A stretch of 64,000 bases of DNA from Ignavibacteriota bacterium (GTDB lineage: Bacteria > Bacteroidota > Ignavibacteria > UBA10030), in assembly GCA_963727825.1 (NCBI GenBank), contig CAVSHO010000001.1:288001-352000 (forward strand), written 5' to 3'. This document shows positions 27,520 to 64,000 of the stretch, one piece after another (position 1 is the stretch's first letter; every line of letters begins with the position of its first letter). The position numbers and the translations under genes were made by a program. The notes beneath the pieces were generated by a model. It was given only the letters and a program-made list of their open reading frames with translations. It ran no database searches and was not told where the DNA came from.

Positions 27520-30024
27520 TCAGCGATATGCGGCTTTCTGTAATGGTTGGCGATTACCATGCAGTGAAAGAATGTTAGCAAATAAACGATACGCCCCTTC
27601 CACGCCTGCAGGCAATTGACGGAAGAATGCGTAGGCACAAAACACATAGTATCCTTTTCCATACTTTGCTGCCAACAAACCACCTGCCCGATCCGGTTCA
27701 TTCGTATCGTGGCAACTAATAACTGAGTCATACTTTGTGTCCCAACGATCGGCAAAATACAGTCCCCGTTCTTGAACCCATCCCTTGAAATCTTCCTCAG
27801 TGATTTTGTTGGGGGTCGTCAATAAAGGATGCTCCCGATTCACGAAAGTGATTTTAGCATCTTCTTCTGTAACTCGATCGCGTGATATATTCAATGGATA
27901 TGGTCCAATATTTTCCGATTCAATTCTCTGCGCAGTAACATATTGGACTACATATGTTCCTCCGCGTTTAATATAGTCCAGAAGACGTTGCTGGTGAATT
28001 CGAAGTTTCGGTCGTGTGTTGTACGCCCTCACTCCTGCGACGATAACATCGTATTGATCAAGATTTCCCTTAGCAAGTTCTTCATCTGAAAGAAGTGCAA
28101 CTGAATATCCCATCTGCCGGATTGCGGAAGGTACATCGTCTCCGGCTCCCATAATGTATCCGACAGAGCGGCCATTTTTTCTTAGATCAATTTTTAAAAG
28201 TCTTCCCTCAGCGAGTGGAAACATTATCTGCGGTGGAATGTGCTTATACTGCGCAATTTGTAGACCTCGGTCAACAATTGTTTTCCCAATCTCAACTTCT
28301 CCAGTGAACGTACCGCTCTTCGCCCCTTTAAGTGGATGCACAGCAAAGGAGAAAGTCTGCTCCTCGTCCTTATTTTGAAATTGAAACTCAGACTGTTCAG
28401 GCTTAACACTCCAAAATTCCGGTAGTTTTAATTTTACTATTCCATGTGTATTCGATATTGAGGTTTTGAGAGAAAGTATTATTTGTCGTTCGAATAAATC
28501 CGGAAATAACACAATTGGTTCCTGAATATTAACTACAACCGGGGGAACAATTTCAAAAGGACGCAATAATTCTCCATCTATTGGGTCAATGACTCTTTGA
28601 TGCAACGGGATATCAATTTTCAATTTACCATCTGGTGAAGAGAGTATAACTGTGATATTGATAGGCGGCTCGTTTTCCGGTTGACCAATCAATAAATGGT
28701 TTGAAATATTGTATGAGCCAATATCAGGTTTCTCCAACAACCAGTACGGTTGAGTATAATTGATTTGTTCTGGCAGTTTCAATGTAAAGTTTGAACGGAT
28801 GGGCTTGTTTGTTTCAAGTTTTGAGCGGAAGAGAGTATCAATTCCGCCAAATGGCAATATGATGCGTTCAAGAATAAAAGGATATGCCGACCGGTTGACA
28901 AACGAAGTGGTGAGTTTCACTTCACCGCCCGGAATTGCGGAATTATCTGGAGTTGCGGCGTCAATCCATAATCCTGCACAAGAAAGAATCACATGTGTCA
29001 ATTTTTCCTTTTTGAAAATAACCCATGGGTCTTGTGTGAGAGAGTTAAGCAAATTCAAGGCTTTGAATAGCAATGGAATCGATTGAGCCGGTGCTTCACC
29101 ATCGAACTTCCGATAGGCTTCGTCAAGAATTTTTCCTACGCTATCCGCGCCTTTTACTCTTGACCATCCAGTGTTGATTCCATCAAAAAGATCTTTTTTT
29201 GCAGTATCCCCGGCAACGTGTTGGAAGTAGTTCAAAGACTCACCGCGGCTTTGCCCGGCACCCATACCTTGACTTTTGTGCATACTCCGTCCCTCGCCGG
29301 CAATTTCTGTAAATGATTTTCCAAGCAGAGGAGAATAAGTTCCAACGTCTATGGTCATCATAGGCATAGCTTTCTGCATTGTATCGGTTTGTAATGGACG
29401 GAATCCATTCCACACAATTCGCTTCGCTTGCCATGTCGATACATACTGAAGCTGTTTCGGGAAACGAGATGGATCTGCAGCGGCACGAAATGCTTCCTCT
29501 GCAAGTATCGCAGATGCTGTGTGATTTCCGTGACCTCCAAGTGTCGGTGTGAAACGCGTTATGATAACATCAGGTCTGAATGTACGAATGACCCAAACTA
29601 CATCAGCAAGAGCTTTTTCTTTTCCCCAGAAGCGAAGAGTTTCTTCCGATGTCTTGGAGAAGCCGAAGTCAATTGCGCTCGTGAAGTATTGTTCTGCGCC
29701 ATCAATTCTTCGTGCAGCAAGAAGTTCCTGAGTTCGGATTAATCCCAGCATTTCCCCCTGTTCGGGGCCAAGTAGGTTTTGACCTCCTTCGCCGCGTGTA
29801 ATCGATAGATATGCAGTTCGATAACACCTATCCTGTGCAAGAGTAGCAAGCAATGCTGTATTTTCATCATCTGGATGTGCAGCGATGTAAAGAACCGATC
29901 CCAGCACCGTGAGTTTCTTTAATGCTAATTTGATCTCTGCAGCGTCCCGTGGATCTGATGATTGAGCATATACTGATTGAGCAATGAGAAATATTAGTAG
30001 AAGCAACGAGGTTCGTCGAATCAT
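27520..30024 (-). CDS. Secreted PIG-L/LmbE family deacetylase with C-terminal Ig-like and GATase-like domains
   Basis: Signal peptide, AAHPDDE, TRGEGGQN, HGNH. Confidence 0.9.
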   Translation of the reverse strand: MIRRTSLLLLIFLIAQSVYAQSSDPRDAAEIKLALKKLTVLGSVLYIAAHPDDENTALLATLAQDRCYRTAYLSITRGEGGQNLLGPEQGEMLGLIRTQELLAARRIDGAEQYFTSAIDFGFSKTSEETLRFWGKEKALADVVWVIRTFRPDVIITRFTPTLGGHGNHTASAILAEEAFRAAADPSRFPKQLQYVSTWQAKRIVWNGFRPLQTDTMQKAMPMMTIDVGTYSPLLGKSFTEIAGEGRSMHKSQGMGAGQSRGESLNYFQHVAGDTAKKDLFDGINTGWSRVKGADSVGKILDEAYRKFDGEAPAQSIPLLFKALNLLNSLTQDPWVIFKKEKLTHVILSCAGLWIDAATPDNSAIPGGEVKLTTSFVNRSAYPFILERIILPFGGIDTLFRSKLETNKPIRSNFTLKLPEQINYTQPYWLLEKPDIGSYNISNHLLIGQPENEPPINITVILSSPDGKLKIDIPLHQRVIDPIDGELLRPFEIVPPVVVNIQEPIVLFPDLFERQIILSLKTSISNTHGIVKLKLPEFWSVKPEQSEFQFQNKDEEQTFSFAVHPLKGAKSGTFTGEVEIGKTIVDRGLQIAQYKHIPPQIMFPLAEGRLLKIDLRKNGRSVGYIMGAGDDVPSAIRQMGYSVALLSDEELAKGNLDQYDVIVAGVRAYNTRPKLRIHQQRLLDYIKRGGTYVVQYVTAQRIESENIGPYPLNISRDRVTEEDAKITFVNREHPLLTTPNKITEEDFKGWVQERGLYFADRWDTKYDSVISCHDTNEPDRAGGLLAAKYGKGYYVFCAYAFFRQLPAGVEGAYRLFANILSLHGNRQPLQKAAYR

Positions 30025-35308: not shown

Positions 35309-35336
35309 TGTAACAAGGTTGTTAAGAAATTGTTAA
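35309..35336 (-). promoter_or_regulatory. Putative Pho box upstream of pst operon 2
   Basis: Minus strand TTAACA-N5-TTAACA-N5-GTTACA (11-bp period), then a TATATT -10-like hexamer. Confidence 0.75.
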
Positions 35337-50696: not shown

Positions 50697-52374
50697 CTAC
50701 ACCAGCAATGGTGCGAGCGGTTGAATGTATTGCTTATTCTGATTACTTAGAACTTGTTGAATCAACTGCGAAAACTCTGTGTGATCGAAAGGTTTGCGAA
50801 TAAATCCTGAAGCGCCATCCTGCAATACGGCACGCGTCGCTGTTTCATCGGTGTAACCGGTTGCAATGATCACTTTCACATCAGGATTAATTGTTTGCAA
50901 ATCGCGGAACGTTTCCTGTCCGCTTTTTCCGGGCATCAGCATATCGAGAATCACTAAATCGATCTTTTGGTCTTGAGCTTCGTAAATATGGATCGCTTCT
51001 TCACCGCTTGCAGCGCGAAGAACATGATAGCCGAGTGACTCAATAAATTCTCCATTGATAAAAAGAACCAGATCTTCATCATCCACGAGCAAGATTGTTC
51101 CTTCTCCCGAAATTGCAGGAGCCATCTGTATTTCTTCCTGTCGTATATGTGGTTTCTTGACAAGAGATCTAAAATAAATAGAGAACGTTGTTCCCTTACC
51201 GACTTCACTTGCGACTGTGATTTGTCCGCCATGGCGCTGCATTATGCCATACGCAACTGATAAACCAAGACCGGTGCCTTTTCCTACTGGCTTGGTAGTG
51301 AAGAATGGTTCAAAAATCTTTGGGAGAACCTCTGATGGAATTCCTGTGCCGCTGTCCTTGATATCCAATTGAACATAACTACCAGGATGAAATTGAGGTT
51401 TCCGTAAGCAATATTCCTCATTCAATTCAATCATCGAGGTCGAAATCCGAAGGGTTCCGCCGTTTGGCATTGCATCACGAGCATTCAACGAAAGATTCAT
51501 AATTACTTGCTGCAACTGCGTTTCATCTGCTTCGATTTGCTCAAGTTCTTGTTCAAGCGCTAATTCGACATGTATCCCTTTCCCGATCGAACGTTCCAAC
51601 ATACGGATGGTTTCACGGATGACTTCGTTGAGAGAAACAACTTTTTTATTGATAATATTCTTTTGAGAGAAGTCGAGCAATTGTCTGGTCAGTGATGCCG
51701 ATCGTTGAGCGGCGTTTTCGACAATCCTGCAATACTGCATCAGCTGGCGAGTCAGAAGGTATTTTCATTTTGAGCATTTGCGTGCCGGATAAAATGGCGC
51801 CAAGCATATTGTTAAAGTCATGGGCAATGCCGGCAGAGAGAGTGCCGATACTAGCCATCTTTTCTGACTGAAGAAGCTGATCGTCCTTGGTTTTGATCTC
51901 TTTCAATGCTTGCTGTAGCTGCTTATTTGCTTCGGCGAATTTGTTCCGATTCTGTTCCACCTCTTCGGCATGTTGAATTAATCGGATCCGCTGTTCCATC
52001 AAAACTCGGTCAATAGAGATCAGTCCTACATACTGGCCATCTCGCACGACTACAATATCTTCATAAACAGAATCGGATTTACGCACGAGTGCACGTTGTA
52101 CAATATCAGAGAACTGATGGTTAACACTCACAACCAGGAATTCTTTCAACATCAATTCTGTGACCGGTCGTTTTTGGTAAACCGCATAACCATATCGTGA
52201 GGAAAGAGCATCTGCGGTTTTCTTGGAGGATAGAAAACCAATTGGCTTATTGTCTTCAAGAACAACCAGAGATTGCGTTTTGTGTTTCTCAAACAATTCC
52301 ATGACTTGTTCACATGGTACTGTGGATTCGATTCCGGGAACAGGCGTAACTAACCGATCTGTTGTATTCTTCAT
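50697..52374 (-). pseudogene. CBS-pair hybrid histidine kinase (CBS-CBS-HisKA-HATPase-REC) with a +1 frameshift near 51746 (may be a sequencing error)
   Basis: CBS repeats and EKMASIGTLSAGIAHDFNN in the upstream ORF; NARDAM, FFTTKPVGKGTGLGL and a receiver domain in the downstream ORF. Confidence 0.88.
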
Positions 52375-52584: not shown

Positions 52585-54384
52585 GTGGTTTATGTGAATT
52601 ATAAAAATGTTCACATTGATTTGGAAGCAGTCCTTGCGAAATATGTACCTTCGTATTGGCAAAAACTTCCCTTAGTATTGCATGCACCTGTCGTTCGATT
52701 CTTCCATCGTATCTTATCGATGGACAGGATAGAAAAGTTCTTATTAGATCATCGCGGCGTTCGAGGTTTCAATCTAATCGATGATTTGTTCGATATGCTT
52801 GAAGTCTCGTTTCTTGTATCGTTACGCGAAATGGAGCGGATACCGACATCCGGTAAAGTCGTCTGCGTCAGTAATCATCCCTTAGGCGGACTTGACGGGC
52901 TTGTTATTTTAAAAGCTATTTACGAAGTCCGTTCCGATGTTCGCATTGTTGTAAACGATGTGCTGCTCAATTTGGAGAGCCTTGCAGATCTGTTTCTTCC
53001 TGTAGATATATTCTCCGGTGTGAACGCCCGCGCAAACAGTCGCAGGATTGATAAATCATTAGCATACGATGAAGCCGTTGTATTTTTTCCTGCTGCAGAA
53101 GTATCACGTATGTCATTGCGCGGTATTACCGATACGAAATGGCACACAGGAGCAGTACGATTTGCCCAACATCATAAAGCTCCGATTCTTCCAATGTATG
53201 TTGGCGCAAAAAATTCAAAATTCTTCTATGGAGTATCACTCATTTCGAAAAAAGCATCGATGCTTTGCTTACCTCATGAAATGCTTCGCAAGAAACCAAA
53301 ACCGATTCGCTTACATGTGGGTGAAATAATTCCGTATGATGCTTTTGCTCATCTACATGCAAAAGCAGCAACAAAACTCATGCGCAAACAAGTTGAAGCA
53401 TTACCTTTTGGTAGAAAAGGACCATTTAGAACAGAACGGGGCATTGCACGACCAATGGAGAAACGAGTACTTCGCCATGAGCTCGATGCTGCGATGTGTT
53501 TAGGATCACCAGCCTCGCGGAAGAAATTGTTCCTCATTACAGCTAATGAGTCGCCACTTGTTGTTCGTGAAATTGCCAGGCTGCGGGAGATAACATTCAG
53601 GCAGGTAAGCGAAGGAACTGGGAAAAGGCTGGATATTGACTCATACGATCAGAGCTATAGGCACTTAATTCTTTGGGATGATGAACGTATGGAAATTATC
53701 GGTGCCTATAGGCTTGGATTCTGCGATGAGATTTTGCCTATCCAAGGAGTACAAGGAATGTACGCTTCGTCTCTTTTTCATTTCTCGGAAGCATTTCTCC
53801 GATTGCTTCCTTTTGCAGTTGAAATGGGGCGCAGTTTCATTCAACGTCCGTATTGGAATTCGCATGCCCTTGAATATTTGTGGGCTGGAATTGGTGCGGT
53901 GATCGCTAATGAACCGACGGTGAAATATCTTTACGGGCCTGTTTCTATAAGCGGAACGTATACTGAGGAAGCGAAAGAAGCGATAGTGTATGTCTGTTCC
54001 AAATGGTACGGCGCACCGGATGGATATGTAACCTCGTTACACCCCTATCGCATAACATATGAAAAGAGAGCAACTCTACATGAATATTTTTGCGGAACAT
54101 CGTACCAGGAGGATTTAAATAAATTGAAGCTGCGTTTGCGTGCCATTGGTGTTTCCGTTCCTACATTGATACGACAGTATTCGGAACTCTGCTCGCCAGG
54201 GGGAGTGCGGTTCTGTGATTTTGGTATCGATGAAGGATTTGGGTCTTGCATCGATGGATTATTCCAATTAGATATGACACATCTGACTCCTGAAAAGTAT
54301 GATCGCTATATCGCACAATATGCATCTGTCCTCCGATATCCGGGGCGAACTATACCGCAGCTGGCCATTCCTTCTGTGTCATAG
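52585..54384 (+). CDS. Bifunctional PlsC-type O-acyltransferase / GNAT N-acyltransferase (OlsF-like aminolipid synthase)
   Basis: SNHPLGGLDG (HxxxxD), FPAAEVS; C-terminal REIARLREITFR, DIDSYD, GAYRLG, EMGRSF, LWAGIG. Confidence 0.82.
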   Translation: MVYVNYKNVHIDLEAVLAKYVPSYWQKLPLVLHAPVVRFFHRILSMDRIEKFLLDHRGVRGFNLIDDLFDMLEVSFLVSLREMERIPTSGKVVCVSNHPLGGLDGLVILKAIYEVRSDVRIVVNDVLLNLESLADLFLPVDIFSGVNARANSRRIDKSLAYDEAVVFFPAAEVSRMSLRGITDTKWHTGAVRFAQHHKAPILPMYVGAKNSKFFYGVSLISKKASMLCLPHEMLRKKPKPIRLHVGEIIPYDAFAHLHAKAATKLMRKQVEALPFGRKGPFRTERGIARPMEKRVLRHELDAAMCLGSPASRKKLFLITANESPLVVREIARLREITFRQVSEGTGKRLDIDSYDQSYRHLILWDDERMEIIGAYRLGFCDEILPIQGVQGMYASSLFHFSEAFLRLLPFAVEMGRSFIQRPYWNSHALEYLWAGIGAVIANEPTVKYLYGPVSISGTYTEEAKEAIVYVCSKWYGAPDGYVTSLHPYRITYEKRATLHEYFCGTSYQEDLNKLKLRLRAIGVSVPTLIRQYSELCSPGGVRFCDFGIDEGFGSCIDGLFQLDMTHLTPEKYDRYIAQYASVLRYPGRTIPQLAIPSVS

Positions 54385-54388
54385 CATC

Positions 54389-54416
54389 ATAATATATTCT
54401 TAATTCTCTAATAACA
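54389..54416 (+). promoter_or_regulatory. Putative Pho box upstream of the ulosonate operon
   Basis: ATAATA, TTAATT, ATAACA at 54389, 54400 and 54411 (11-bp period); AT-rich context weakens the call. Confidence 0.4.
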
Positions 54417-54562
54417 TCAAATAGTTATTTTAAACAAGAATTTTCGTTTACAAAGATATTTTGTTCTGTTCGTGGTTTTTATCTAGGAGCGTTTGTTCCC
54501 TCAGAAACGAAGTGATAGAGAAATATGACAAGAAAGATTATGAATAACAGGAAGAATGTTTT

Positions 54563-55552
54563 GTGAGTATGATCCAGCAGTTTAATTTCTCGATAATCCG
54601 CATTGATTGGATGTTACTGCTTCTGCCGATGCCCTTCTTCATCGGTATGCTGCTGGACACACTCGCATGGAAGCAATTGCTTCCGCCACATCTTACCTTG
54701 CGGTTCAAATCATTATTTGGTGCACAAGTGGGAACGGAAGCAGTGCTCCTTTCCATTCCCGGCGGCTTTGCCATGACGGATCCGATCAAACTGTATATTC
54801 TTAAACAACGGTTTCACATTCCGCCTTTGGAAGTGTTTACTAGCCTTATTACACGTCATTGGCTGTTGGGAATTACACAACTTATTTTTATAAGCTCAGT
54901 TTGTCTGTTTGGATTTGTCGTTTCAGAACAACAATTACTGACTTCCTATATCCAGGATGGAACATTGTTCATCGCGATAAGCGTACTCATCACTGTGAGT
55001 CTCGGCCTTGGTTTTGTCGTCCGAAAACTCATGCGCGGTACACTTGCCCGTGATGTCTGGAAAATCCTATATAGGATGAATATCCGATTGTTGAGAGAGA
55101 AATTGAAAAGAGCAATAGGTTCTTTCAAAGAGGCCGACCGTTGCTTCGAAGCATTATGTAAAAGAAATGCGTCGAGTATTATATACGCAGCAATGTTTTA
55201 TCTTCTCTTGTGGACAATGGATGTGTGGGAAACAATGCTGGTTGCCCACGCAACAGGATTTCAAATTTCCATTATTAATGCTTTTCTCATTGAAGCAGTT
55301 CTTTCTGCTGTCCGTTTAAGCGTATTCTTCCTTCCTGGAGGTGTCGTAGTAAAAGAACTCGGATATTTTGCTCTCTTTACATCATTTAATCTTGGTATTT
55401 CTATGATTCGGATTTGTTCATTTGTTTTAATAAAGCGTCTGGTATCCATTCTTTGTATTCTTATCGGTTATCTCGTTCTCCTAAGACAAAGAATAGGCAC
55501 GATTTGGAAACATTCATCGATTCCTTATCAAACTATTATGGAAAGTCAATGA
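54563..55552 (+). CDS. UPF0104 / lysylphosphatidylglycerol-synthase-TM (flippase-like) membrane protein
   Basis: Multiple TM helices, IPGGFAMTDPIK, FFLPGGVVVKE, LIKRL. Confidence 0.72.
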   Translation: MSMIQQFNFSIIRIDWMLLLLPMPFFIGMLLDTLAWKQLLPPHLTLRFKSLFGAQVGTEAVLLSIPGGFAMTDPIKLYILKQRFHIPPLEVFTSLITRHWLLGITQLIFISSVCLFGFVVSEQQLLTSYIQDGTLFIAISVLITVSLGLGFVVRKLMRGTLARDVWKILYRMNIRLLREKLKRAIGSFKEADRCFEALCKRNASSIIYAAMFYLLLWTMDVWETMLVAHATGFQISIINAFLIEAVLSAVRLSVFFLPGGVVVKELGYFALFTSFNLGISMIRICSFVLIKRLVSILCILIGYLVLLRQRIGTIWKHSSIPYQTIMESQ

Positions 55553-56547
55553 AAAAAAAGATCTTACATATTGGGGGAACGTGGAACCAAATTACTCAAC
55601 TACACCAGATTGCAGATATGCTCCCCGAGTATGATCACTGTTTTTCTCCACAGTATTGTGATGGATTATTACGCGTTATTCAGAAATGGGGTTGGTTGGA
55701 TTTCACTGCTCCTGGACGTCCTTGGGTCAAGAGGATAAAAAAGTATATCCATGATCACCAACTCCAGGAAGACTGCGGCGGTGAATCAGGAGATTACGAT
55801 TTAACATTGATTACGACGGATTTAATTGTGCCAAAAAATATTTTGAATGGAAAAGTTGTTCTTGTGCAAGAAGGAATGACCGATCCCGAGAACTTTATGT
55901 TTCGGATGGTTAAATGGTTTCCATTCCTGCCTCATTGGATTGCCAGCAGTTCTGCTAACGGATTGAGCAATAAGTACAATGTACTCTGCGTTGCAAGTGA
56001 GGGTTATCGTGATTTGTTTATACAGAAGGGCGTGAAACGCGAAAATATTATTGTAACAGGTATTCCGAATTTTGATAATTGTAAAAAGTTTTATAACAAC
56101 ACATTTCCATTCCACAAATATGTTTTAGTGTGTACTTCGGATTCGCGCGAAACTTTCAAGTTTGAGAACAGAAAGAAATTCGTGCGACAGGCATATGAAT
56201 TTGCTGACGGCCGACAACTAATTTTCAAACTTCATCCCAATGAAAATATTAAACGTGCAACGAAAGAAATCAATACCTATGCACCAGGTGCTTTAGTGTT
56301 TACAAATGGGAATACTGAAGAAATGATCGCAAACTGTGATGTATTGATAACACAATATTCAAGCGTTGTGTACGTAGGAATTGCTTTGGCAAAAGAAGTG
56401 TACTCGTATTTTGACGTCCAGATGCTGCGAAGATTATTGCCACTGCAGCATGCTTCTGCAGCAAAAAACATTGCACAGGTATGTCGTCTGCTCCTCGAAA
56501 CAGAATCGGTGAGTGTTCCTGACTTATCTTTCGAGATAGTTTCTTGA
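55549..56547 (+). CDS. Uncharacterised GT-B-like protein, candidate CMP-ulosonate glycosyltransferase
   Basis: VLVQEG, IIVTGIPNFD, FKLHPNE, DVLITQYSSV; ATGA overlap with the previous gene sets the start at 55549. Confidence 0.6.
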   Translation: MKKKILHIGGTWNQITQLHQIADMLPEYDHCFSPQYCDGLLRVIQKWGWLDFTAPGRPWVKRIKKYIHDHQLQEDCGGESGDYDLTLITTDLIVPKNILNGKVVLVQEGMTDPENFMFRMVKWFPFLPHWIASSSANGLSNKYNVLCVASEGYRDLFIQKGVKRENIIVTGIPNFDNCKKFYNNTFPFHKYVLVCTSDSRETFKFENRKKFVRQAYEFADGRQLIFKLHPNENIKRATKEINTYAPGALVFTNGNTEEMIANCDVLITQYSSVVYVGIALAKEVYSYFDVQMLRRLLPLQHASAAKNIAQVCRLLLETESVSVPDLSFEIVS

Positions 56548-57356
56548 AAAAGCTGATTATTATACAGGCACGGCTTGGTTCTTCGCGGCTGCCGCGGAAA
56601 GTGATGATGCCATTGAAGGGAAGTCCTTTGCTTCTGCGTATGATTCAACGGGTAACAACTGCGAAAGTAGATTGCGACCTCATTGTTGCGACAACAACGA
56701 ATCCCGAAGATGATGCTATCAGGGATCTTTGTCAGAAGTTCAATATTCCTTGCTACAGTGGTCATCCGATCGATTTGTTAGATCGGCATTACCAAGCTGC
56801 TCTGCAAGAACATGCCGATGTGGTTATTAAGATTCCTTCAGATTGTCCTTTGATCGATCCACGGGTCATTGATAAAGTAGTCAAATACTATGAAGATCAT
56901 GCGGATCAGTATGATTTTGTGAGTAATCTTCATCCTGCAACTTATCCGGACGGGAATGATGTAGAAGTGATGCCATTCGATATTCTTGAAATTGCATGGA
57001 GAGAAGCTGCTCGTTTACTGGAACGTGAGCATACCACACCATTTATCTGGGAACATCCAGAACGATTTAGAATTGGAAATGTACTCTGGGAAACTGGTAA
57101 AAATTTTTCAATGACTCATCGCTGGACGATCGATTATCCTGAGGATTATATCTTCATCAAAAAAGTATATGATTACCTGTGTACGCCAGACTCCCCAGTA
57201 TTTTCAATCTATGATATCCTGGAATTACTGAAGCAGGAACCGATCCTGCCTCTTTTGAATGTAAAATATGCAGGTGTCAATTGGTACAGGCATCATTTAA
57301 ATGAATTAAAAACAGTGACATCGAAAGAAACAAAAATATTATTAGAAACGGCTTAG
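56544..57356 (+). CDS. SpsF-type acylneuraminate/ulosonate cytidylyltransferase
   Basis: IIQARLGSSRLPRKVM, SDCPLIDP, REHTTPFI, RWTIDYPED. Confidence 0.88.
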   Translation: MKKLIIIQARLGSSRLPRKVMMPLKGSPLLLRMIQRVTTAKVDCDLIVATTTNPEDDAIRDLCQKFNIPCYSGHPIDLLDRHYQAALQEHADVVIKIPSDCPLIDPRVIDKVVKYYEDHADQYDFVSNLHPATYPDGNDVEVMPFDILEIAWREAARLLEREHTTPFIWEHPERFRIGNVLWETGKNFSMTHRWTIDYPEDYIFIKKVYDYLCTPDSPVFSIYDILELLKQEPILPLLNVKYAGVNWYRHHLNELKTVTSKETKILLETA

Positions 57357-57357
57357 C

Positions 57358-58215
57358 ATGTTAGATGAACAAACTCAAATTTTGAAAGATCGCGCGCTTC
57401 ATGTGCGTGAACATATTATCCGGATGGCAACTGACGGCGGTTGCTTTATAGGTGCATCCCTTTCATGTGTCGACCTTATTGTATTTATGTATTCCGACCT
57501 ATTAAATATTACACCGGATAGCATTGATAATCCTGAGCGTGATTATTTCTTTCTTTCTAAGGGGCATGGTGTCCCCGCGTTGTATGGAGCACTCGCCGAA
57601 TTAAACTTCATGCCAAAAGAACGGTTATTACAGCATTTAAAAATATCCAATTCCATGTATTGGCATCCGAATCGATCAATTCCAGGGGTTGAATTTCATT
57701 CGGGTTCGTTAGGACATTTGCTCGCAGTTGCAATCGGTGTTGCCTACGACATAAAGATTCGAGATGGAAACAATCGTGTCTTTGTACTTCTCGGTGATGG
57801 TGAATTGAACGAAGGTTCAATCTGGGAGGCATGCCTTTCTGCTGCAGCACACCAACTTGATAATCTTATCGTAGTCGTGGATCGGAACGAATTTCAGGCA
57901 AATGCACGGACAGAGGAACTTATTCCGCTCGAACCGATTGGAGCAAAATTTGGAGCATTTGGCTGGACCTGGAAAAGGATCGATGGTCATGACTTCAAAG
58001 CAATGGATGCTGTTTTTCATTGTCTTCCATTTCAACATGGGAAACCTAATGTTATTATCGCGAATACCGTACGCGGAAAAGGATTACCCAGCATAGAACA
58101 GCGGGCAGATAGATGGTTCGCCGACTTCACAAAACAGGAAATGGAAATGCTATTGCAAGAATTGCACAGTTCGGTTCCCACCGACATCTCCTCTGAAACT
58201 CTTATGGTTCAATAA
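57358..58215 (+). CDS. Transketolase, N-terminal (TPP-binding) subunit
   Basis: RDYFFLSKGH, GSLGH, GDGELNEG; GGCFIG where transketolases usually have GHxG. Confidence 0.9.
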   Translation: MLDEQTQILKDRALHVREHIIRMATDGGCFIGASLSCVDLIVFMYSDLLNITPDSIDNPERDYFFLSKGHGVPALYGALAELNFMPKERLLQHLKISNSMYWHPNRSIPGVEFHSGSLGHLLAVAIGVAYDIKIRDGNNRVFVLLGDGELNEGSIWEACLSAAAHQLDNLIVVVDRNEFQANARTEELIPLEPIGAKFGAFGWTWKRIDGHDFKAMDAVFHCLPFQHGKPNVIIANTVRGKGLPSIEQRADRWFADFTKQEMEMLLQELHSSVPTDISSETLMVQ

Positions 58216-58216
58216 C

Positions 58217-59185
58217 ATGACATACGAAGAGAAGCTTGCACAATTATGTGCACAAAATTCCAAGTTGATGATCCTCACCGCTGAAAATCGCGCAGTCATT
58301 CGATCTCTTCCAACGGGACTCGGCAAACGATTCATAGATTTCGGCATTGCAGAGCAAACAATGGTTGGGGCAGCCGCCGGCCTAGCATTGCGTGGGAGAA
58401 TTCCAATAGTACACGCCTTGGCGACATTTCTTACCATGCGTGCATTTGAGTTTATCAGGACGGATGTAGGAATCGCCAAATTGCCTGTAAAATTAATTGG
58501 CGCCGTTCCAGGATTCCTCTCCGATGGCAATGGCCCGACTCATCAAGCGATTGAAGATATTGCACTAATGCATTCGATTCCTTCTATGCAGATATTCTGC
58601 CCATCTGATATTGATGAACTTGTCGATGGACTTGATCAGGTAATCCAAAGTAAATATCCATGTTATGTTCGCTTTAATGCTCGGTCCTCAGTGATTAAGC
58701 ATTTTACGCCATTTGTGTTCGGAGTATCCGAAACAATTACCGATGGATTTGATATAACAATATTGACTTATGGTTTTTTATTGGAACAAGCACTCATTGC
58801 CAGGGAACTCCTGGAAAAGTCGGGAGTGTCAGTTCGTCTTATCAATCTTCGCAGTCTTCATCCTATTGATGAATCCACAATTTTACGAGCCGCTCGAGAG
58901 ACACGGCTGCTCGTGACAGTTGAAGATCATTTTTTAAACGGTGGCCTGTTTAGTATTCTCAGCGAGATTCTTGTTAGAACTCAAACAATGGTCAATGTAT
59001 TGCCAATCGCACTGGAACAATGCTGGTTCTCACCTGGCATATTGCAGGATGTACTTGAACATGAAGGATATACAGGCAAGCAGCTTTCTCAACGAATTCT
59101 TACCAAGTTTACATCAATTCATCAGAATCACATAAAAGTTTCCAAGCATCATAAAGTTTCATTTTTCATACGATCAATTTGTTAA
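58217..59185 (+). CDS. Transketolase, C-terminal subunit
   Basis: DFGIAEQTM, GPTHQAIED, VTVEDH. Confidence 0.9.
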   Translation: MTYEEKLAQLCAQNSKLMILTAENRAVIRSLPTGLGKRFIDFGIAEQTMVGAAAGLALRGRIPIVHALATFLTMRAFEFIRTDVGIAKLPVKLIGAVPGFLSDGNGPTHQAIEDIALMHSIPSMQIFCPSDIDELVDGLDQVIQSKYPCYVRFNARSSVIKHFTPFVFGVSETITDGFDITILTYGFLLEQALIARELLEKSGVSVRLINLRSLHPIDESTILRAARETRLLVTVEDHFLNGGLFSILSEILVRTQTMVNVLPIALEQCWFSPGILQDVLEHEGYTGKQLSQRILTKFTSIHQNHIKVSKHHKVSFFIRSIC

Positions 59186-59198
59186 AAAAGGGGTTGGT

Positions 59199-60548
59199 AT
59201 GGCAAACACTGTACAAAACAACGAACGATATCCGGATATTACTCAATCGAATAAATTGTATACTCGCGCCTTAACGCTTATTCCTTCACAAACTCAAACG
59301 CTTGCCAAAGGTCCGGGGCAATATATAAAAGGTGTCGCCCCTAAATATCTTGTGCGCGGGAAAGGTTCGCATGTGTGGGATGCAGACGGAAATGAGTTTA
59401 TCGATTATAATATGGGCATTGGTCCGCTATCCCTCGGATATTGCTACCCAGCTGTCGATGAAGCAATCAAGGAACAACTGCAGAACGGAATAACGTTTTC
59501 CATGATGCATCCGTTGGAAGTAGAGGTTGCAGAGTATATCCATGCACTTGTGCCGAGTGCAGAAATGGTTCGTTTCAGCAAGACCGGTGCCGACGTCACG
59601 AGTGCTGCCGTACGATTGGCGCGTGCCTTTACAGGAAGAAACAAAGTTCTTTGCTGTGGGTATCATGGCTGGCATGATTGGTATATAAGTGTCACGGATC
59701 GCGATAAAGGAATTCCGCGGGAAATAGCTAATCTCACACACACGTTCAATTACAACGACATCGATTCGGTTGTTGATTCGATCGACAGTGAGACTGCATG
59801 CGTTATCCTTGAGCCTATTGTGTTCGAAGAACCTAAGGACAACTTTCTTCATTTACTAAAGGGAATATGCGAACAGAATGGAACATTATTGATTTTCGAT
59901 GAAATGTGGACCGGCTTTCGCTTAGCGCTTGGTGGCGCGCAGGAATATTTCGGCGTGAAAGCGGACCTTATGACTTTTTCAAAAGCGATTGCTAACGGGA
60001 TGCCTCTTTCGGTTCTCACGGGGCGCGCCGATGTAATGCAGTTGCTTGAAAAGGATGTATTCTTCTTTACAACATTCGGTGGCGAGGCACTTTCTCTTGC
60101 AGCCGCAAAAGCGACAATTCTCGAAATGTTAGCTCACCAAGTTCCGCAGCGCATTGCCGCACAAGGCAAAAAGTTGCGCACAGGTCTCGATGCAATTCTG
60201 AAGGAAGAAGATATTTATTTTATAAATTGTCGTGGATTTGATTGCAGAACAATGCTTTCAATTGATTCATCTGTTAATAATCCGCTTGCATTAAAATCGT
60301 TTATTCAGCAAGAGTTCTTCAAGAGAGGCATTTTATGGAGTGGGTTTCATAACATCTCTTACTCTCATACCGACGAAGATATCGAATATACCCTAAAAGC
60401 ATATCGTGAAGTGCTAATATATGCAAAACGAGCTGTGCAGGATGATATTGTACTTAATTCTCTTTGCGGTGAAGTTGTGGAGCCGGTTTTTCGGAAGACC
60501 AGCAACTTTCACACTAAGCCAAAGATAGAGGTCGATGGGAAAAAATGA
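59199..60548 (+). CDS. Class III PLP aminotransferase (GSA-aminomutase-like)
   Basis: GYHGWHD, LIFDEMWTGFR, FSKAIANG, TTFGG. Confidence 0.9.
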   Translation: MANTVQNNERYPDITQSNKLYTRALTLIPSQTQTLAKGPGQYIKGVAPKYLVRGKGSHVWDADGNEFIDYNMGIGPLSLGYCYPAVDEAIKEQLQNGITFSMMHPLEVEVAEYIHALVPSAEMVRFSKTGADVTSAAVRLARAFTGRNKVLCCGYHGWHDWYISVTDRDKGIPREIANLTHTFNYNDIDSVVDSIDSETACVILEPIVFEEPKDNFLHLLKGICEQNGTLLIFDEMWTGFRLALGGAQEYFGVKADLMTFSKAIANGMPLSVLTGRADVMQLLEKDVFFFTTFGGEALSLAAAKATILEMLAHQVPQRIAAQGKKLRTGLDAILKEEDIYFINCRGFDCRTMLSIDSSVNNPLALKSFIQQEFFKRGILWSGFHNISYSHTDEDIEYTLKAYREVLIYAKRAVQDDIVLNSLCGEVVEPVFRKTSNFHTKPKIEVDGKK

Positions 60549-61363
60549 ATTCACTTTTTTCGTTGACGGATAAGGTTGCGTTAGTAACTGGCGCATTAGG
60601 TTTGCTTGGCAGGCAGCATTGCGATGCGCTTGCTCAATCAGGTGCGAATATCGTCGTAACCGATGTCGATCAGGAGGGATGCAATGCTTTTGCCAGAGAT
60701 CTTGCCTCAGAATACCATATCACTGCTTTTGGATGTGCAATGGATATTACCAACGAGGAATCGCTGTGTAGCGTTCGTGATGCGATGCTGAAACAATTCG
60801 GCAGGCTTAATATTTTGGTCAACAATGCTGCGATCAATGATTTAGTTGAAAAACGTAGCAACAAAGTAGATTATTCAAGTTTTGAATTTTTTCCGCTCCA
60901 AGAATGGAAACAATCTCTAGAAGTGAATGTAACCGGGCTTTTCTTGTGCTGCAGAATATTTGGTGCGCTTATGGTTGAAAACGGGAGCGGTAGTATTATT
61001 AATATCGCATCAACCTATGGAATGGTCGCACCTAACCAGTCTATCTATGTTCGCCCCGATGGTACGCGATTAATGTTCAAATCACCAGCATATCCTACAA
61101 CGAAAGGTGCAGTGTTGGCTTTGACAAAATACTTGGCGGCATATTGGGGAAGCAAGGGTATTCGCGTGAATGCTCTTTCACCGGGTGGAGTCGAAAATGG
61201 GCAGGAAGAATTTTTTGTCGAAAATTATTCTGCGAAAACACCTCTGCAGCGCATGGCACATCCAAATGATTATAAAGGCGCAATAGTTTTTCTAGCGAGC
61301 GATGCATCCCAGTATATGACCGGTGCAAATTTAGTCGTGGATGGTGGTTGGACAATCTGGTAA
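60545..61363 (+). CDS. SDR oxidoreductase of the PtmA-like type found in nonulosonate clusters
   Basis: TGALGLLG, NNAA, YPTTK, LSPGG, GANLVVDGG. Confidence 0.9.
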   Translation: MNSLFSLTDKVALVTGALGLLGRQHCDALAQSGANIVVTDVDQEGCNAFARDLASEYHITAFGCAMDITNEESLCSVRDAMLKQFGRLNILVNNAAINDLVEKRSNKVDYSSFEFFPLQEWKQSLEVNVTGLFLCCRIFGALMVENGSGSIINIASTYGMVAPNQSIYVRPDGTRLMFKSPAYPTTKGAVLALTKYLAAYWGSKGIRVNALSPGGVENGQEEFFVENYSAKTPLQRMAHPNDYKGAIVFLASDASQYMTGANLVVDGGWTIW

Positions 61364-61373
61364 TGAAAAGTTA

Positions 61374-61982
61374 ATGGGAAAAAACCCGATAAAACTTATA
61401 GCAACTACCAATAAAAGCGGATTAAAAAGACGCGCAGATCGAATACGGCTGTTATTAACCGATTGCGATGGCGTACTAACGGATAATGGTGTGTACTATT
61501 CTGATCATGGCGAGGAGATGAAACGATTCTCTATTCGTGACGGTATGGGAGTCGCTCGGTTGCGAAGTGCAGGAATTGAGATAGGGATCATTTCAGGAGA
61601 GGCGTCACGGAGTTTGCAGCAACGTGCCGAGAAACTATGTATTACTCATTTATATCTTGGTGTGAAAGATAAACTTCAGCAGGTAATATCTATTGCCAAA
61701 CATCATAACATTCCCCTGGAGGCCGTTGCATATATCGGAGATGATGTAAATGATATCAATGTTATGTCTAAGCTGTATGAAATAAGCTTGACTGCTGTTC
61801 CCAGTGATGCTTTACCTTCAGTACATCGCTTGGCACATTACGTATGTACATGCAATGGAGGACATGGTGCTTTCCGCGAATTTTCAGATTGGATTCTTGA
61901 TCTCCGCGGCACAGAAAAACCTGTCAATGAAACATATGAAAAAATAGATAATTCACTTATTCTTTCAAAGGTAAAAGTATGA
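61374..61982 (+). CDS. KdsC/Kdn-9-phosphate phosphatase-like HAD hydrolase
   Basis: DCDGVLTD, FSIRDG, YIGDDVND, GGHGAFRE. Confidence 0.9.
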   Translation: MGKNPIKLIATTNKSGLKRRADRIRLLLTDCDGVLTDNGVYYSDHGEEMKRFSIRDGMGVARLRSAGIEIGIISGEASRSLQQRAEKLCITHLYLGVKDKLQQVISIAKHHNIPLEAVAYIGDDVNDINVMSKLYEISLTAVPSDALPSVHRLAHYVCTCNGGHGAFREFSDWILDLRGTEKPVNETYEKIDNSLILSKVKV

Positions 61983-62908
61983 ATTCCGATGTTTTACGAG
62001 TTGGGCACAAATTTATAGGCGCTAATCAGCCTGTATATGTCATAGCCGAAATCGGCATCAATCACAATGGTTCATTAGAATTAGCAAAGAAGCTTATTGA
62101 TGCTGCATTTCTTGCTGGATGTGATGCGGTTAAATTTCAAAAACGAACCCCCGTAAAATGCGTTCCAATAGATCAATGGAATATCGAGCGCGATACACCA
62201 TGGGGACGCATGACATATATCAACTACCGCAATAAGATGGAATTTGGGAAGGAACAATTTGACGAGATCGATCAATACTGTCGTGTACGCGGAATTGCAT
62301 GGTTTGCATCTTGCTGGGATGAAGACTCCGTCGATTTTATGGAACAATATGCTGTCCCGTGTTACAAAGCACCTTCTGCCTCGCTTACAGACATAGAACT
62401 TCTTCGCAAGATGAAATCTACAGGCAAACCGTTAATCATCTCTACCGGTATGTCGACAATGGATGAAATTGAAACAGTCTTTGATTGTATAGGTCTCGAT
62501 AATCTTTTAATCGCACACACAACATCTACCTATCCTTGTCCGCTCCATGAAATTAATCTCCGGATGATTCAAACACTACAGGAAAAGTATATTAATAATC
62601 CTATCGGTTACTCAGGCCATGAAACGGGATTATCGCCTACATGGGCGGCTGTTGCACTGGGCGCAACGTTTGTCGAACGACATATCACACTTGATCGAGC
62701 GATGTGGGGAAGTGATCAGGCGGCTTCCGTGGAAATAGGCGGGCTTATACGACTTGTTCAAAATATTCGTGACATTGAGCGTGCATTTGGCGATGGTATC
62801 AAGCGGGTTTATCCGAGCGAGATTGGCCAGCGGAACAAATTACGTCGTATTAATTCTCTGGATCCGGTTTCCATATCAACTGAACGTTCCATGGTTTGTT
62901 CGCCATGA
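61979..62908 (+). CDS. NeuB-family PEP-dependent ulosonate synthase (short form without SAF domain)
   Basis: IAEIGINHNG, DAVKFQKR, ISTGMS, GYSGHE, VERHITLDR, GSDQAAS. Confidence 0.93.
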   Translation: MNSDVLRVGHKFIGANQPVYVIAEIGINHNGSLELAKKLIDAAFLAGCDAVKFQKRTPVKCVPIDQWNIERDTPWGRMTYINYRNKMEFGKEQFDEIDQYCRVRGIAWFASCWDEDSVDFMEQYAVPCYKAPSASLTDIELLRKMKSTGKPLIISTGMSTMDEIETVFDCIGLDNLLIAHTTSTYPCPLHEINLRMIQTLQEKYINNPIGYSGHETGLSPTWAAVALGATFVERHITLDRAMWGSDQAASVEIGGLIRLVQNIRDIERAFGDGIKRVYPSEIGQRNKLRRINSLDPVSISTERSMVCSP

Positions 62909-63046: not shown

Positions 63047-63074
63047 ATAATCCTTTGTTAACAGAAAGATAACA
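63047..63074 (+). promoter_or_regulatory. Putative Pho box upstream of sixA
   Basis: ATAATC-ctttg-TTAACA-gaaag-ATAACA (11-bp period). Confidence 0.7.
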
Positions 63075-63169: not shown

Positions 63170-63667
63170 TTGATGCTGGTTTATATTCTTCGCCATGGAA
63201 TTGCAGCGCCACGCGGTGTCAAACCATACCCAAATGATGATCGTCCTCTCACAGAAGAAGGTATTGAGAAGATGTTAAAAGGCGCAATGGGAATTGTGCA
63301 TCTGGTAGATGATGTAGATATTATTTTAACGAGCCCAATGATACGGGCTGCCGAAACTGCTAAGATTGTCGCAAAGGCATTACACATTGAATCAAAACTC
63401 CAGATTTGTAATGAGCTAAGTCCGGGGAGTTCATTAAAGAATCTTCTTACGTACCTTGCAAAATTTAAAAAATTGAGAGGTATCATGATTGTCGGTCATG
63501 AACCGGATCTTGCTTATTTCGCTTCTGCATTGCTGGGTAAGAAAACACCAGTTATTGAATTTAAAAAGGGTTCACTTTGCTGCATAGAAGTGACCACAAT
63601 ACCATCGAAAAAAGATGGGAAATTACTCTGGCTTGTTACGCCAAAACAATTACGATTGATGGCATAA
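63170..63667 (+). CDS. sixA: Phosphohistidine phosphatase SixA
   Basis: ILRHG, DRPLT, TSPMIRAAETA, VGHEPDL. Confidence 0.9.
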   Translation: MMLVYILRHGIAAPRGVKPYPNDDRPLTEEGIEKMLKGAMGIVHLVDDVDIILTSPMIRAAETAKIVAKALHIESKLQICNELSPGSSLKNLLTYLAKFKKLRGIMIVGHEPDLAYFASALLGKKTPVIEFKKGSLCCIEVTTIPSKKDGKLLWLVTPKQLRLMA

Positions 63668-63682
63668 AAGAAAGAAGGAAAA

Positions 63683-64000
63683 ATGTCCCGCGTTTTTGAA
63701 CAAGATCACCAGCTACCCGGCCGATTAATTATTGTCGAAGGGATAGATGGATCCGGCAAGTCAACACAATTGCAATTGCTGCATAAGTGGCTCCTCAATT
63801 CGAAATATCGAACATTTTTTACAGAATGGAATTCATCAGCACTGGTAAAAGAAACAATTAAGTATGGGAAAAAGAAAAATCTTCTAACACCAACGACGTT
63901 TTCCATTTTGCATGCAACAGACTTTGCCGATCGTTTGATGCACTTGATCATTCCTCCGATGAAAGCAGGAATGATTGTCTGTGCAGATCGGTATATCTAT
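63683..64000 (+). CDS. Thymidylate-kinase-like protein, runs off the window end (not in the ORF track)
   Basis: MSRVFEQDHQLPGRLIIVEGIDGSGKSTQ...TEWNSS...DFADR...ADRYIY; AAGGA RBS. Confidence 0.85.
   Translation, partial: MSRVFEQDHQLPGRLIIVEGIDGSGKSTQLQLLHKWLLNSKYRTFFTEWNSSALVKETIKYGKKKNLLTPTTFSILHATDFADRLMHLIIPPMKAGMIVCADRYIY

Follow-up and report, generated by a model that had tools for sequence, protein, structure and literature searches.

We analysed a stretch of 64,000 nucleotides from the genome of an Ignavibacteriota bacterium (GCA_963727825.1, contig CAVSHO010000001.1, positions 288,001 to 352,000 of the forward strand; hereafter the window, numbered from its first letter). Its open reading frames (ORFs) define an operon of nine co-directional genes on the + strand at 54563-62908. 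Neighbouring genes overlap by 4 nt at 55549, 56544, 60545 and 61979 and by 23 nt at 61341, and the remaining junctions are gaps of 1, 1 and 13 nt; the G+C content is similar to that of the flanking DNA. A first-pass annotation, made from the letters of the window, had described nine tightly coupled genes here, and this arrangement (overlaps of 4-23 nt or gaps of 1-13 nt) proved real. The start it had given, 54389, was moved, as the first gene begins at 54563 with GTG and 54385-54562 is intergenic. Pfam and NCBIfam searches upheld most of its family list, with a correction needed for the first gene, and the block is indeed without an acetyltransferase, a nucleotide-sugar dehydratase, wzx/wzy or kps. 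We consider it fairly probable that the operon encodes, as a self-contained unit, the synthesis of an acidic or zwitterionic glycolipid, in which an amino-ulosonic acid activated with cytidine monophosphate (CMP) would be placed on a membrane lipid and then translocated. The nine genes are as follows.

54563-55552, + strand: UPF0104/LPG_synthase_TM-like membrane protein, 329 amino acids (aa), assigned through homologues, short form; proposed translocase for the lipid product
55549-56547, + strand: TagF-like GT-B transferase, 332 aa (PF04464, 26.5 bits, cut-off 22.1); proposed CMP-releasing transferase of ulosonic acid to lipid
56544-57356, + strand: SpsF-type cytidylyltransferase (CTP_transf_3), 270 aa (PF02348, 96.7 bits); maker of the CMP-sugar by family
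57358-58215, + strand: N-terminal (ThDP/PP; ThDP, thiamine diphosphate) subunit of an atypical split transketolase-like enzyme (PF00456, 95.8 bits)
58217-59185, + strand: C-terminal (Pyr plus C) subunit of the split transketolase-like enzyme (PF02779 and PF02780)
59199-60548, + strand: class III (GSA-aminomutase-like) aminotransferase (AT3), 449 aa (PF00202, 170.6 bits); proposed sugar amination
60545-61363, + strand: SDR oxidoreductase, 272 aa (PF13561 and PF00106); proposed maker of the carbonyl to be aminated
61341-61982, + strand: KdsC/Kdn-9-phosphate-phosphatase-type HAD-IIIA phosphatase, 213 aa, real start perhaps later (TIGR01670, 137.4 bits, cut-off 106.95)
61979-62908, + strand: short NeuB-type synthase, 309 aa, without the C-terminal SAF domain (PF03102, 252 bits, residues 39-275)

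The predicted sugar route

The first-pass annotation had proposed a Kdn-type sugar route extended by an amination module, and our comparisons support this. The short NeuB has the 290-aa protein 6ncs as its nearest structure and scores under the equivalog cut-offs for the Neu5Ac (TIGR03569, 247 vs 400) and Pse (193 vs 340) models. The phosphatase scores just under the cut-off of the Kdn-9-P phosphatase model NF058599 (157.5 bits, cut-off 180) and under that of KdsC (153.9, cut-off 208); a second KdsC-like copy lies on another contig (C9) of the same genome. The Kdn and animal sialic acid routes use a phosphorylated aldose and pass through a 9-phosphate, and the combination of NeuB with a KdsC-type phosphatase in this operon points to a substrate and an intermediate of that kind. 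The cytidylyltransferase (nearest structure 6oew, E 3.4e-34) has orthologues, 52-87% identical, directly after the GT-B gene in related loci. The best NCBIfam matches of the aminotransferase and the SDR are PRK06209 (383.8 bits, under the cut-off of 486) and PRK09186 (186 bits, under the cut-off of 255), and the structures matching the aminotransferase include aminoglycoside C-6' aminotransferases. The adjacency of these two genes is conserved, and together they resemble known oxidise-then-aminate pairs.

We then compared the split transketolase-like enzyme with human transketolase (TKT). Its nearest structures are those of a split transketolase (6yak for the N subunit, E 1.8e-51; 6yaj for the C subunit, E 1.3e-46), and on the C subunit the DXS and transketolase models score alike. 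All 28 N subunits from operons retain the His77, His110, GDG and Asn positions (GDGEL, VDRN), and the cofactor-activating Glu ("AEQ") is also retained. In the same 28 sequences the His37 position holds I, V, T or A and the His258 position F or Y; in the C subunit of the window, the one sequence read at this stretch ("THAG..GEDG"), Val and Asn stand in the places of His416 and Asp424. The comparison thus recovered the ThDP motif and the activating Glu but not the full His/Asp set (His37, His258, His416, Asp424), which we take to bind the donor C1 hydroxyl and the sugar phosphate in human TKT. Since several canonical catalytic residues are missing, the earlier proposal that a transketolase supplies the sugar backbone is uncertain, and the donor of the enzyme may be something other than a ketose, for example a 2-oxo acid. 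It also appears optional, because 7 of the 32 complete loci described below lack both subunits.

Two described pathways are close to this one. The CMP-Kdn route of Bacteroides thetaiotaomicron consists of a Kdn-9-P synthase, a Kdn-9-P phosphatase and a CMP-Kdn synthetase, and the operon shares with it a NeuB-type synthase predicted to act on a sugar phosphate, a KdsC-type HAD phosphatase and a cytidylyltransferase. It differs in adding the SDR, the class III aminotransferase and the atypical split ThDP enzyme, in the SpsF type of its cytidylyltransferase, in a phosphatase that stays just under the Kdn-9-P cut-off, and in a transferase that appears to be directed to lipid. The Kdo8N pathway of Shewanella uses the dehydrogenase KdnB and the aminotransferase KdnA, with lipopolysaccharide (LPS) as its target. 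There too an oxidoreductase and an aminotransferase exchange an ulosonic acid hydroxyl for an amine, as we propose here, whereas the enzymes of the operon belong to the SDR and class III families and its backbone synthase is of the NeuB rather than the KdsA type.

The GT-B family, its partners and its settings

The GT-B gene, called an orphan in the first-pass annotation, turned out to belong to a large unnamed family. We found 6813 homologous database proteins at E<=0.001, the best 120 of which are 53-99% identical, and matches in at least 591 stretches of species-representative genomes from about 10 phylum-level groups as labelled. The closest named genome match was an Ignavibacteriota metagenome-assembled genome (MAG), at 80% identity. 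For locus comparisons we used the best 80 related loci carrying the gene. An operon-type SpsF, AT3 or NeuB gene lies beside the GT-B gene in 48 of the 80, which bears out the expectation that the gene set is conserved across phyla and self-contained. GT-B, SpsF, AT3, SDR and NeuB occur together in 32 of the 80, and many of the others end at contig edges. Among these 32 complete loci, both transketolase subunits are present in 25 and neither in 7 (Melioribacter-type loci); the HAD gene is found in 24, a fatty-acid-hydroxylase gene after NeuB in 25, and UPF0104 before GT-B in 8. Carriers are labelled Ignavibacteriota, Bacteroidota, Chlorobi-type, Kapaibacteria and Sorangium, with one Spirochaetia MAG. 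What flanks the operon depends on the lineage (Rnf and two-component system genes, among others). In the related loci surveyed, genes of the wzx, wzy or kps kind, or for a polymerase, flagellin or another glycosyltransferase, do not recur near the operon, and it does not sit in O-antigen or flagellin loci there.

To follow the genes beyond their loci, we searched 301 genomes of the phylum of the window for GT-B (E<=1e-20), NeuB (E<=1e-80) and AT3 (E<=1e-120). This search identified GT-B in 100 genomes, short NeuB in 99 and AT3 in 43. The 99 NeuB carriers are exactly the GT-B carriers minus one genome (G102), none of the 201 genomes without GT-B has NeuB, and all 43 AT3 carriers also carry GT-B. 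Within families the presence of GT-B and NeuB is patchy (2/14, 3/7, 10/16), with the same genomes carrying both each time. GT-B and NeuB are plainly coupled, also where the genes are not adjacent, among genomes that are related and hence not independent samples. In the genus of the window (g1), GT-B, NeuB and AT3 occur in one of five other genomes, whose GT-B match holds an internal TGA; this patchiness indicates that the operon is accessory and frequently gained or lost.

We examined the class of the GT-B protein by profile and by fold. In addition to its match to PF04464 (TagF-type), which lies above the gathering score, it matches PF02350 (UDP-GlcNAc 2-epimerase) below the gathering score (22.3 bits, against 30.6), and it falls far below the cut-offs for TIGR04396 ("surface carbohydrate biosynthesis protein") and the BFO_1060 glycosyltransferase family. 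A structure model built from 23 family members (pLDDT 84.8) has the GT-B fold. Its nearest solved folds are UDP-GlcNAc 2-epimerases (top Z 17.9), among them NeuC 5zlr (Z 17.3, 285 residues aligned, rmsd 4.0), so the absence of NeuC from the operon, which the first-pass annotation had assumed, needed to be argued. Behind these, at Z 14.4-15.5, come PglA, MGD1, MurG, a polysialyltransferase (5wc6, Z 14.8), and TagF and TarL (Z 14.5-15.0). When the family profile was compared with solved proteins, the sole sequence match was the TagF-like capsule polymerase Cps3D (8qoy, E 7.4e-5), in its C-terminal nucleotide-binding half. Bacterial CMP-sialic acid transferases reportedly carry D/E-D/E-G and HP motifs; Q107-E108-G109 and H229-P230, candidate counterparts of these, are invariant in the 23 family members. 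TagF-type enzymes and the sialyl and Kdo transferases all release CMP, which fits the cytidylyltransferase gene that follows GT-B.

Gene fusions gave information on the partners of the family. Of 27 long GT-B homologues, 20 carry PF03706 and two the PF02348 cytidylyltransferase; single cases carry an ABC-2 permease, a PF04116 hydroxylase, the class III aminotransferase PF00202 and PF18939 (a moss-labelled record), and one has no further domain. In the one fusion checked, PF03706 is N-terminal and the GT-B part spans residues 352-672 at 52% identity, the same order as that of the genes in the window and of the domains in MprF. A partner of the translocase type, with an ABC-2 exporter as the alternative, argues for a lipid substrate and against a soluble, NeuC-like role. 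The UPF0104-like protein of the window has itself no Pfam match at E<=0.01 and a weak match to TIGR03476 HpnL (51.8 bits, cut-off 195.65). It is tied to PF03706 through its homologues, being 24% identical (E 2e-20) to L007:8946-10004, which matches PF03706 at 4.7e-31; L003:8843-9973 matches at 3e-27. It is without the first N-terminal helix of other members, and the closest relative, locus L001, has the same short start. A predicted complex of UPF0104 and GT-B scored 0.00, which counts neither for nor against the pairing.

In the 32 loci without operon-type genes, the GT-B gene keeps other company. A gene similar to the bacterial ceramide synthase bCerS and/or one of the serine palmitoyltransferase (Spt) type is present in 19 (15 and 10 loci, respectively), a CerR-like gene of the NAD-epimerase family in 13, and ABC-2 genes in 14. 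The loci with such ceramide-type clusters are from Desulfobacterota and Planctomycetota, and some non-operon loci also contain polyketide synthase (PKS), phosphopantetheinyl transferase and radical-SAM genes. The bCerS-like protein of these loci (373 aa) matches no family, its homologue in the genome of the window being a weak GNAT match, and the best model for their alpha-oxoamine synthase is serine palmitoyltransferase (496 bits, cut-off 640). PMC11087976 gives the bacterial ceramide pathway as Spt, the acyltransferase bCerS and the NDUFA9-like reductase CerR, and PMC12134224 describes a PKS and an oxoamine synthase that make sphinganines and phosphoglycerol sphingolipids in a Pseudomonas. 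Two further layouts were seen. In Poribacteria, genes for a GFO oxidoreductase, an SDR, a cytidylyltransferase-HAD fusion, NeuB, PAP2 and GT-B lie together. In a Chlorobi-type MAG (L003:12072-18065), SpsF, a FabG-like SDR, KAS III, an MFS transporter and an acyl-CoA ligase come after the UPF0104-GT-B pair in the place of the NeuB module, a different, lipid-flavoured variant.

The proposed pathway and its acceptor lipid

Taken by family, the genes suggest the following order of events. The short NeuB would condense phosphoenolpyruvate with a sugar phosphate, and the KdsC-type phosphatase would dephosphorylate the product, following the Kdn-type route. The SDR and the class III aminotransferase would replace a hydroxyl by an amine, and the SpsF-type enzyme would form the CMP-sugar, with the split transketolase-like protein as an optional ThDP enzyme. 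At the cytoplasmic face, the TagF-like GT-B would then join the sugar to a membrane lipid and release CMP, a step suggested by family, fusions, neighbours and co-occurrence, and UPF0104 would translocate the resulting glycolipid in the manner of the MprF flippase half, an ABC-2 exporter presumably taking its place in other lineages. A lipid target with a flippase-like partner, as the first-pass annotation had it, is the most likely arrangement given the fusions, the lipid-gene neighbours and the strict co-occurrence with NeuB.

The operon can thus be described as a CMP-ulosonic acid pathway joined to an MprF-like arrangement of synthase and translocase, both of known kinds. As in MprF, the lysyl-phosphatidylglycerol synthase and flippase, a PF03706-type domain is N-terminal to, or encoded before, a cytoplasmic head-group enzyme; unlike in MprF, the partner is a GT-B that putatively uses a CMP-sugar rather than an aminoacyl-tRNA-dependent GNAT-like domain, and flipping is a prediction. 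With the PF04464 polymerases TagF, TarL and Cps3D the transferase shares the GT-B fold and, as proposed, the CMP leaving group, whereas those enzymes polymerise polyol phosphates from CDP-alcohols and the operon protein is a single 332-aa domain linked to lipid genes and, we infer, to a CMP-ulosonic acid pathway. KpsS and KpsC transfer Kdo from CMP-Kdo to lyso-phosphatidylglycerol, and KpsMT exports the product by an ABC-2 transporter. The transfer proposed here, in which an ulosonic acid passes at the cytoplasmic face from a CMP-donor onto a membrane lipid that is then exported, is similar, and the Desulfobacterota and Planctomycetota loci likewise pair GT-B with ABC-2 genes; the operon differs in having no PF05159 match or capsule genes and in UPF0104 replacing the ABC-2 exporter.

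As the acceptor in this bacterium we suggest, more weakly, a (dihydro)ceramide. Another contig of the same genome (C13) carries together an Spt-like gene (best match NF047600, 487 bits, cut-off 640), a bCerS-like gene and a CerR-like gene of the NAD-epimerase family, which could supply it. The bCerS-like protein has 372 aa and a weak GNAT match (E 9e-5), and the trio is a putative counterpart of the characterised Caulobacter enzymes. In another phylum, a bCerS-like gene is found in 61 of 181 genomes, including all four carriers of GT-B (one of them the source of the query). As a separate observation, the C13 trio (L081:7942-15314) lies about 2 kb, with one aminopeptidase-like gene between, from genes for a PitA-like phosphate transporter and a TIGR00153 (PhoU-like) protein.

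Green sulfur bacteria offer a reduced version of the system. In family f20, GT-B is present in 55 of 63 genomes. The FMO protein family was detected in all four f20 genomes and the one f23 genome tested and in none of 14 controls, which identifies the f20 and f23 genomes as green sulfur bacteria. Each of the four f20 genomes has a UPF0104-GT-B pair, a separate HAD-NeuB pair (NeuB 66-71% identical) and a bCerS-like gene. AT3 orthologues are absent from all 63 f20 genomes, SpsF orthologues were not found in the four searched, and transketolase and SDR genes do not flank the GT-B or NeuB loci of these four; the f23 genome holds the full operon. A "novel aminoglycosphingolipid" of Chlorobium limicola was reported by Jensen, Knudsen and Olson in 1991, a title cited in PMC11762602, so that a system of the kind first proposed for the window would not be wholly unprecedented. 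No gene assignment for this lipid appeared in the literature searched (subscription journals lay outside it), and the minimal set of genes in f20 makes a natural candidate for it. To judge from its title, the lipid would share with the product proposed here an amino-sugar-acid sphingolipid character, in a lineage where GT-B is common; the product of the window, if its acceptor is ceramide, would be a relative of it. As these four f20 genomes lack AT3 and SpsF orthologues, and unlike them the window has AT3, SpsF, transketolase-like and SDR genes, its operon should make a further-modified sugar, a tailored relative.

Several observations weigh against the ceramide acceptor or against the pathway as drawn. 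The bCerS-like gene occurs in 286 of the 301 genomes of the phylum, so its co-occurrence with GT-B is uninformative there. In family f19, the five genomes have the complete operon and no bCerS-like match at E<=1e-30, and their Spt-type matches are 32%-identical paralogues in two of the five; ceramide therefore cannot be a universal acceptor. Sphingolipid genes were found within 10 kb of none of the 48 operon loci, and the lipid genes that do recur beside them are of the Ols type. The donor is not constant across the family either. Five Desulfobacterota and Planctomycetota genomes with GT-B have no AT3 orthologue (best matches 33-38% identity), no short NeuB match in three and weak ones in two, and for SpsF N-terminal KdsB-like matches in four and none in the fifth. 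These genomes, with a GT-B about 54% identical, indicate that close relatives of the transferase use another donor, for which CMP-Kdo or a CDP-alcohol would be guesses. The epimerase folds nearest to the GT-B model also count on this side, and for the operon itself the identity of the sugar, the order of the steps and the donor are all inferred. The Chlorobium limicola lipid is reported to contain neuraminic acid, a sphingoid base and myristate.

A wider proposal, which we offer tentatively as possible rather than probable, is that many phyla make "ganglioside-like" lipids. The unnamed CMP-dependent GT-B would put a sialic-acid-type sugar on ceramide or another lipid, UPF0104 or ABC-2 proteins would export it, and these would be the genes of the green sulfur lipid; in the full operon, the ThDP enzyme, SDR and aminotransferase would build an undescribed amino-ulosonic acid, possibly with an extended or rearranged chain. 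If true, this would give a function to a large unnamed GT-B family and to one branch of the widespread UPF0104 membrane proteins, and would tie bacterial sialic-acid-type sugars to membrane lipids rather than surface glycans. It would also provide candidate genes for a green sulfur lipid known, by its cited title, since 1991, and would supply steps of head-group addition and export for bacterial sphingolipids, the flippases of which PMC11087976 describes as yet to be identified. The sugar chemistry of the atypical ThDP enzyme may be new, and the system is open to testing in cultured, harmless bacteria. No paper on the gene set or the GT-B family was found in the literature searched, which did not extend to subscription journals; new in this analysis are the fusions, the strict co-occurrence, the tie to ceramide clusters, the minimal set of green sulfur bacteria and the f19 counter-example.

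Surroundings of the operon and rival readings

Outside the conserved gene set, three neighbouring features bear on the interpretation.

52585-54384, + strand: OlsF, bifunctional ornithine-lipid synthase (NF052615, 653 bits, cut-off 620); neighbour outside the conserved set, perhaps functionally related
63170-64000 of the window and L094:171-4827, downstream of the operon: polyphosphate-type cluster, also found after the operon in L001
30416-39852, - strand: two complete pst operons, each with its own phoU, 13-24 kb from the operon

The operon had been placed among phosphate-starvation genes, and the region is indeed rich in phosphate-related genes; those directly adjacent are limited to OlsF, 178 nt upstream, and SixA. 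SixA is followed downstream by two adjacent thymidylate-kinase-family (Tmk-like) genes, Ppx/GppA and two CHAD-domain ORFs. Control of the operon by phosphate starvation is possible, the link being circumstantial. The more specific proposal, that it belongs to the Pho regulon and that its product replaces phospholipid or lipid A phosphate under starvation, we regard as doubtful. The context in the window recurs in L001, where SixA and Ppx lie near the operon and which alone among the 80 loci has Pst/PhoU homologues there; SixA and Ppx lie just upstream of it in L005. L055 and L062 have PstS-like genes and OlsF on either side of it, and L026 has a PstS-like gene at 28% identity. A metallophosphoesterase gene is divergent from GT-B in eight loci, and phosphorus-free lipids, including a Caulobacter glycosphingolipid, are known starvation responses, in part from PMC11087976. 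Against this, the general linkage to pst, ppx and ols genes foreseen by the first-pass annotation was confined to a few lineages: Pst/PhoU/SixA/Ppx homologues at >=34% identity were found in 4 of the 80 loci, about the chance level by a rough estimate, and Ols-type genes in 6 of the 48 operon loci, and most loci have unrelated neighbours such as Rnf genes.

The Pho box that had been suggested before the operon was not recovered. Before pstS2, at 35309-35336, there are three to four TTAACA-like units with 11-bp spacing, a candidate Pho box for the lineage, and a two-unit copy lies before sixA at 63058-63074. This repeat has no match >=11/12 in 54385-54562, in what is a weak test with a query taken from one promoter, and the search is circular for pstS2 itself because the motif came from that promoter. 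The window has three sites (two at the source) against 1.4 in shuffles, a number within chance. Genome-wide there are nine three-unit sites, one of them (G000:C1:375630-375657) between a GT4 gene and an OmpR-type regulator/kinase pair. The stretch upstream of the operon is not conserved in L001, which also speaks against the Pho-regulon proposal. Rfam at gathering thresholds gave no match in the window, and scans for sigma-70 promoters and terminators found fewer sites than shuffled sequences (24 vs 30.6; 5 vs 9.2) and were therefore set aside.

A second alternative keeps the sugar pathway and the transferase and replaces ceramide with an ornithine-type lipid, its lyso form or a form hydroxylated by an OlsE-like enzyme. 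We kept an amino-acid-lipid acceptor as the main rival on account of f19 and the Ols-type neighbours, and consider it unlikely. In addition to OlsF in the window, which is also within 10 kb of the operon in L055 and L062, four loci (L007, L024, L030, L063) have an OlsB-like gene divergent from UPF0104. An FA_hydroxylase gene follows NeuB in 26 of the 48 operon loci, with OlsE as its sole NCBIfam match (126 bits, cut-off 475), the f19 genomes also have this hydroxylase, and one PF04116-GT-B fusion is known from the long homologues. This match is unspecific, because PF04116 also includes sphingolipid hydroxylases, and the NeuB-linked hydroxylase, used as query, has no homologue in the genome of the window. 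OlsF lies within 10 kb in those two of the 80 loci and is not beside the operon in L001, the Ols linkage in 6 of 48 loci comes from about three lineages, and we know of no glycosylated ornithine lipid.

That the CMP-sugar instead goes to a polysaccharide, LPS core or glycoprotein, the GT-B being an ordinary glycan transferase, we judge quite improbable. Nonulosonic acid pathways mostly serve glycans, GT9 heptosyltransferase genes lie near L012, L044, L052 and L068, and the weak matches to TIGR04396 and the BFO_1060 family point the same way, though far below their cut-offs; yet glycan-assembly genes do not recur beside the operon in the loci surveyed, the domains fused to GT-B include a flippase-type one, an ABC-2 permease and a lipid hydroxylase, and the gene lies within ceramide-type clusters in two phyla. 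Finally, a NeuC-like UDP-sugar 2-epimerase or hydrolase that feeds NeuB and transfers nothing would fit the epimerase folds, the sub-threshold PF02350 match and the near-perfect co-occurrence with NeuB, but is highly improbable given a PF04464 score over its cut-off, a TagF-like polymerase as the sole sequence-level match in the PDB, fusions to membrane export domains, the presence of the gene in genomes without NeuB and within ceramide clusters, and a HAD partner that implies a phosphorylated NeuB substrate, the NeuC product being unphosphorylated.

The interval between the pst operons and the nine-gene operon holds glycoside hydrolase-like and esterase-like genes, a CPBP protease, a beta-lactamase-family gene and a hybrid histidine kinase. 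On the other side of the pst operons, an 834-aa protein is encoded at 27520-30024 (- strand), of which the N-terminal 220 residues resemble an LmbE/Mca-type deacetylase and the rest has no NCBIfam match. The hybrid histidine kinase, at 50697-52374 (- strand), is read as two overlapping ORFs (50697-51740 and 51646-52374), which may reflect a frameshift, an error in the sequence or a disrupted gene.

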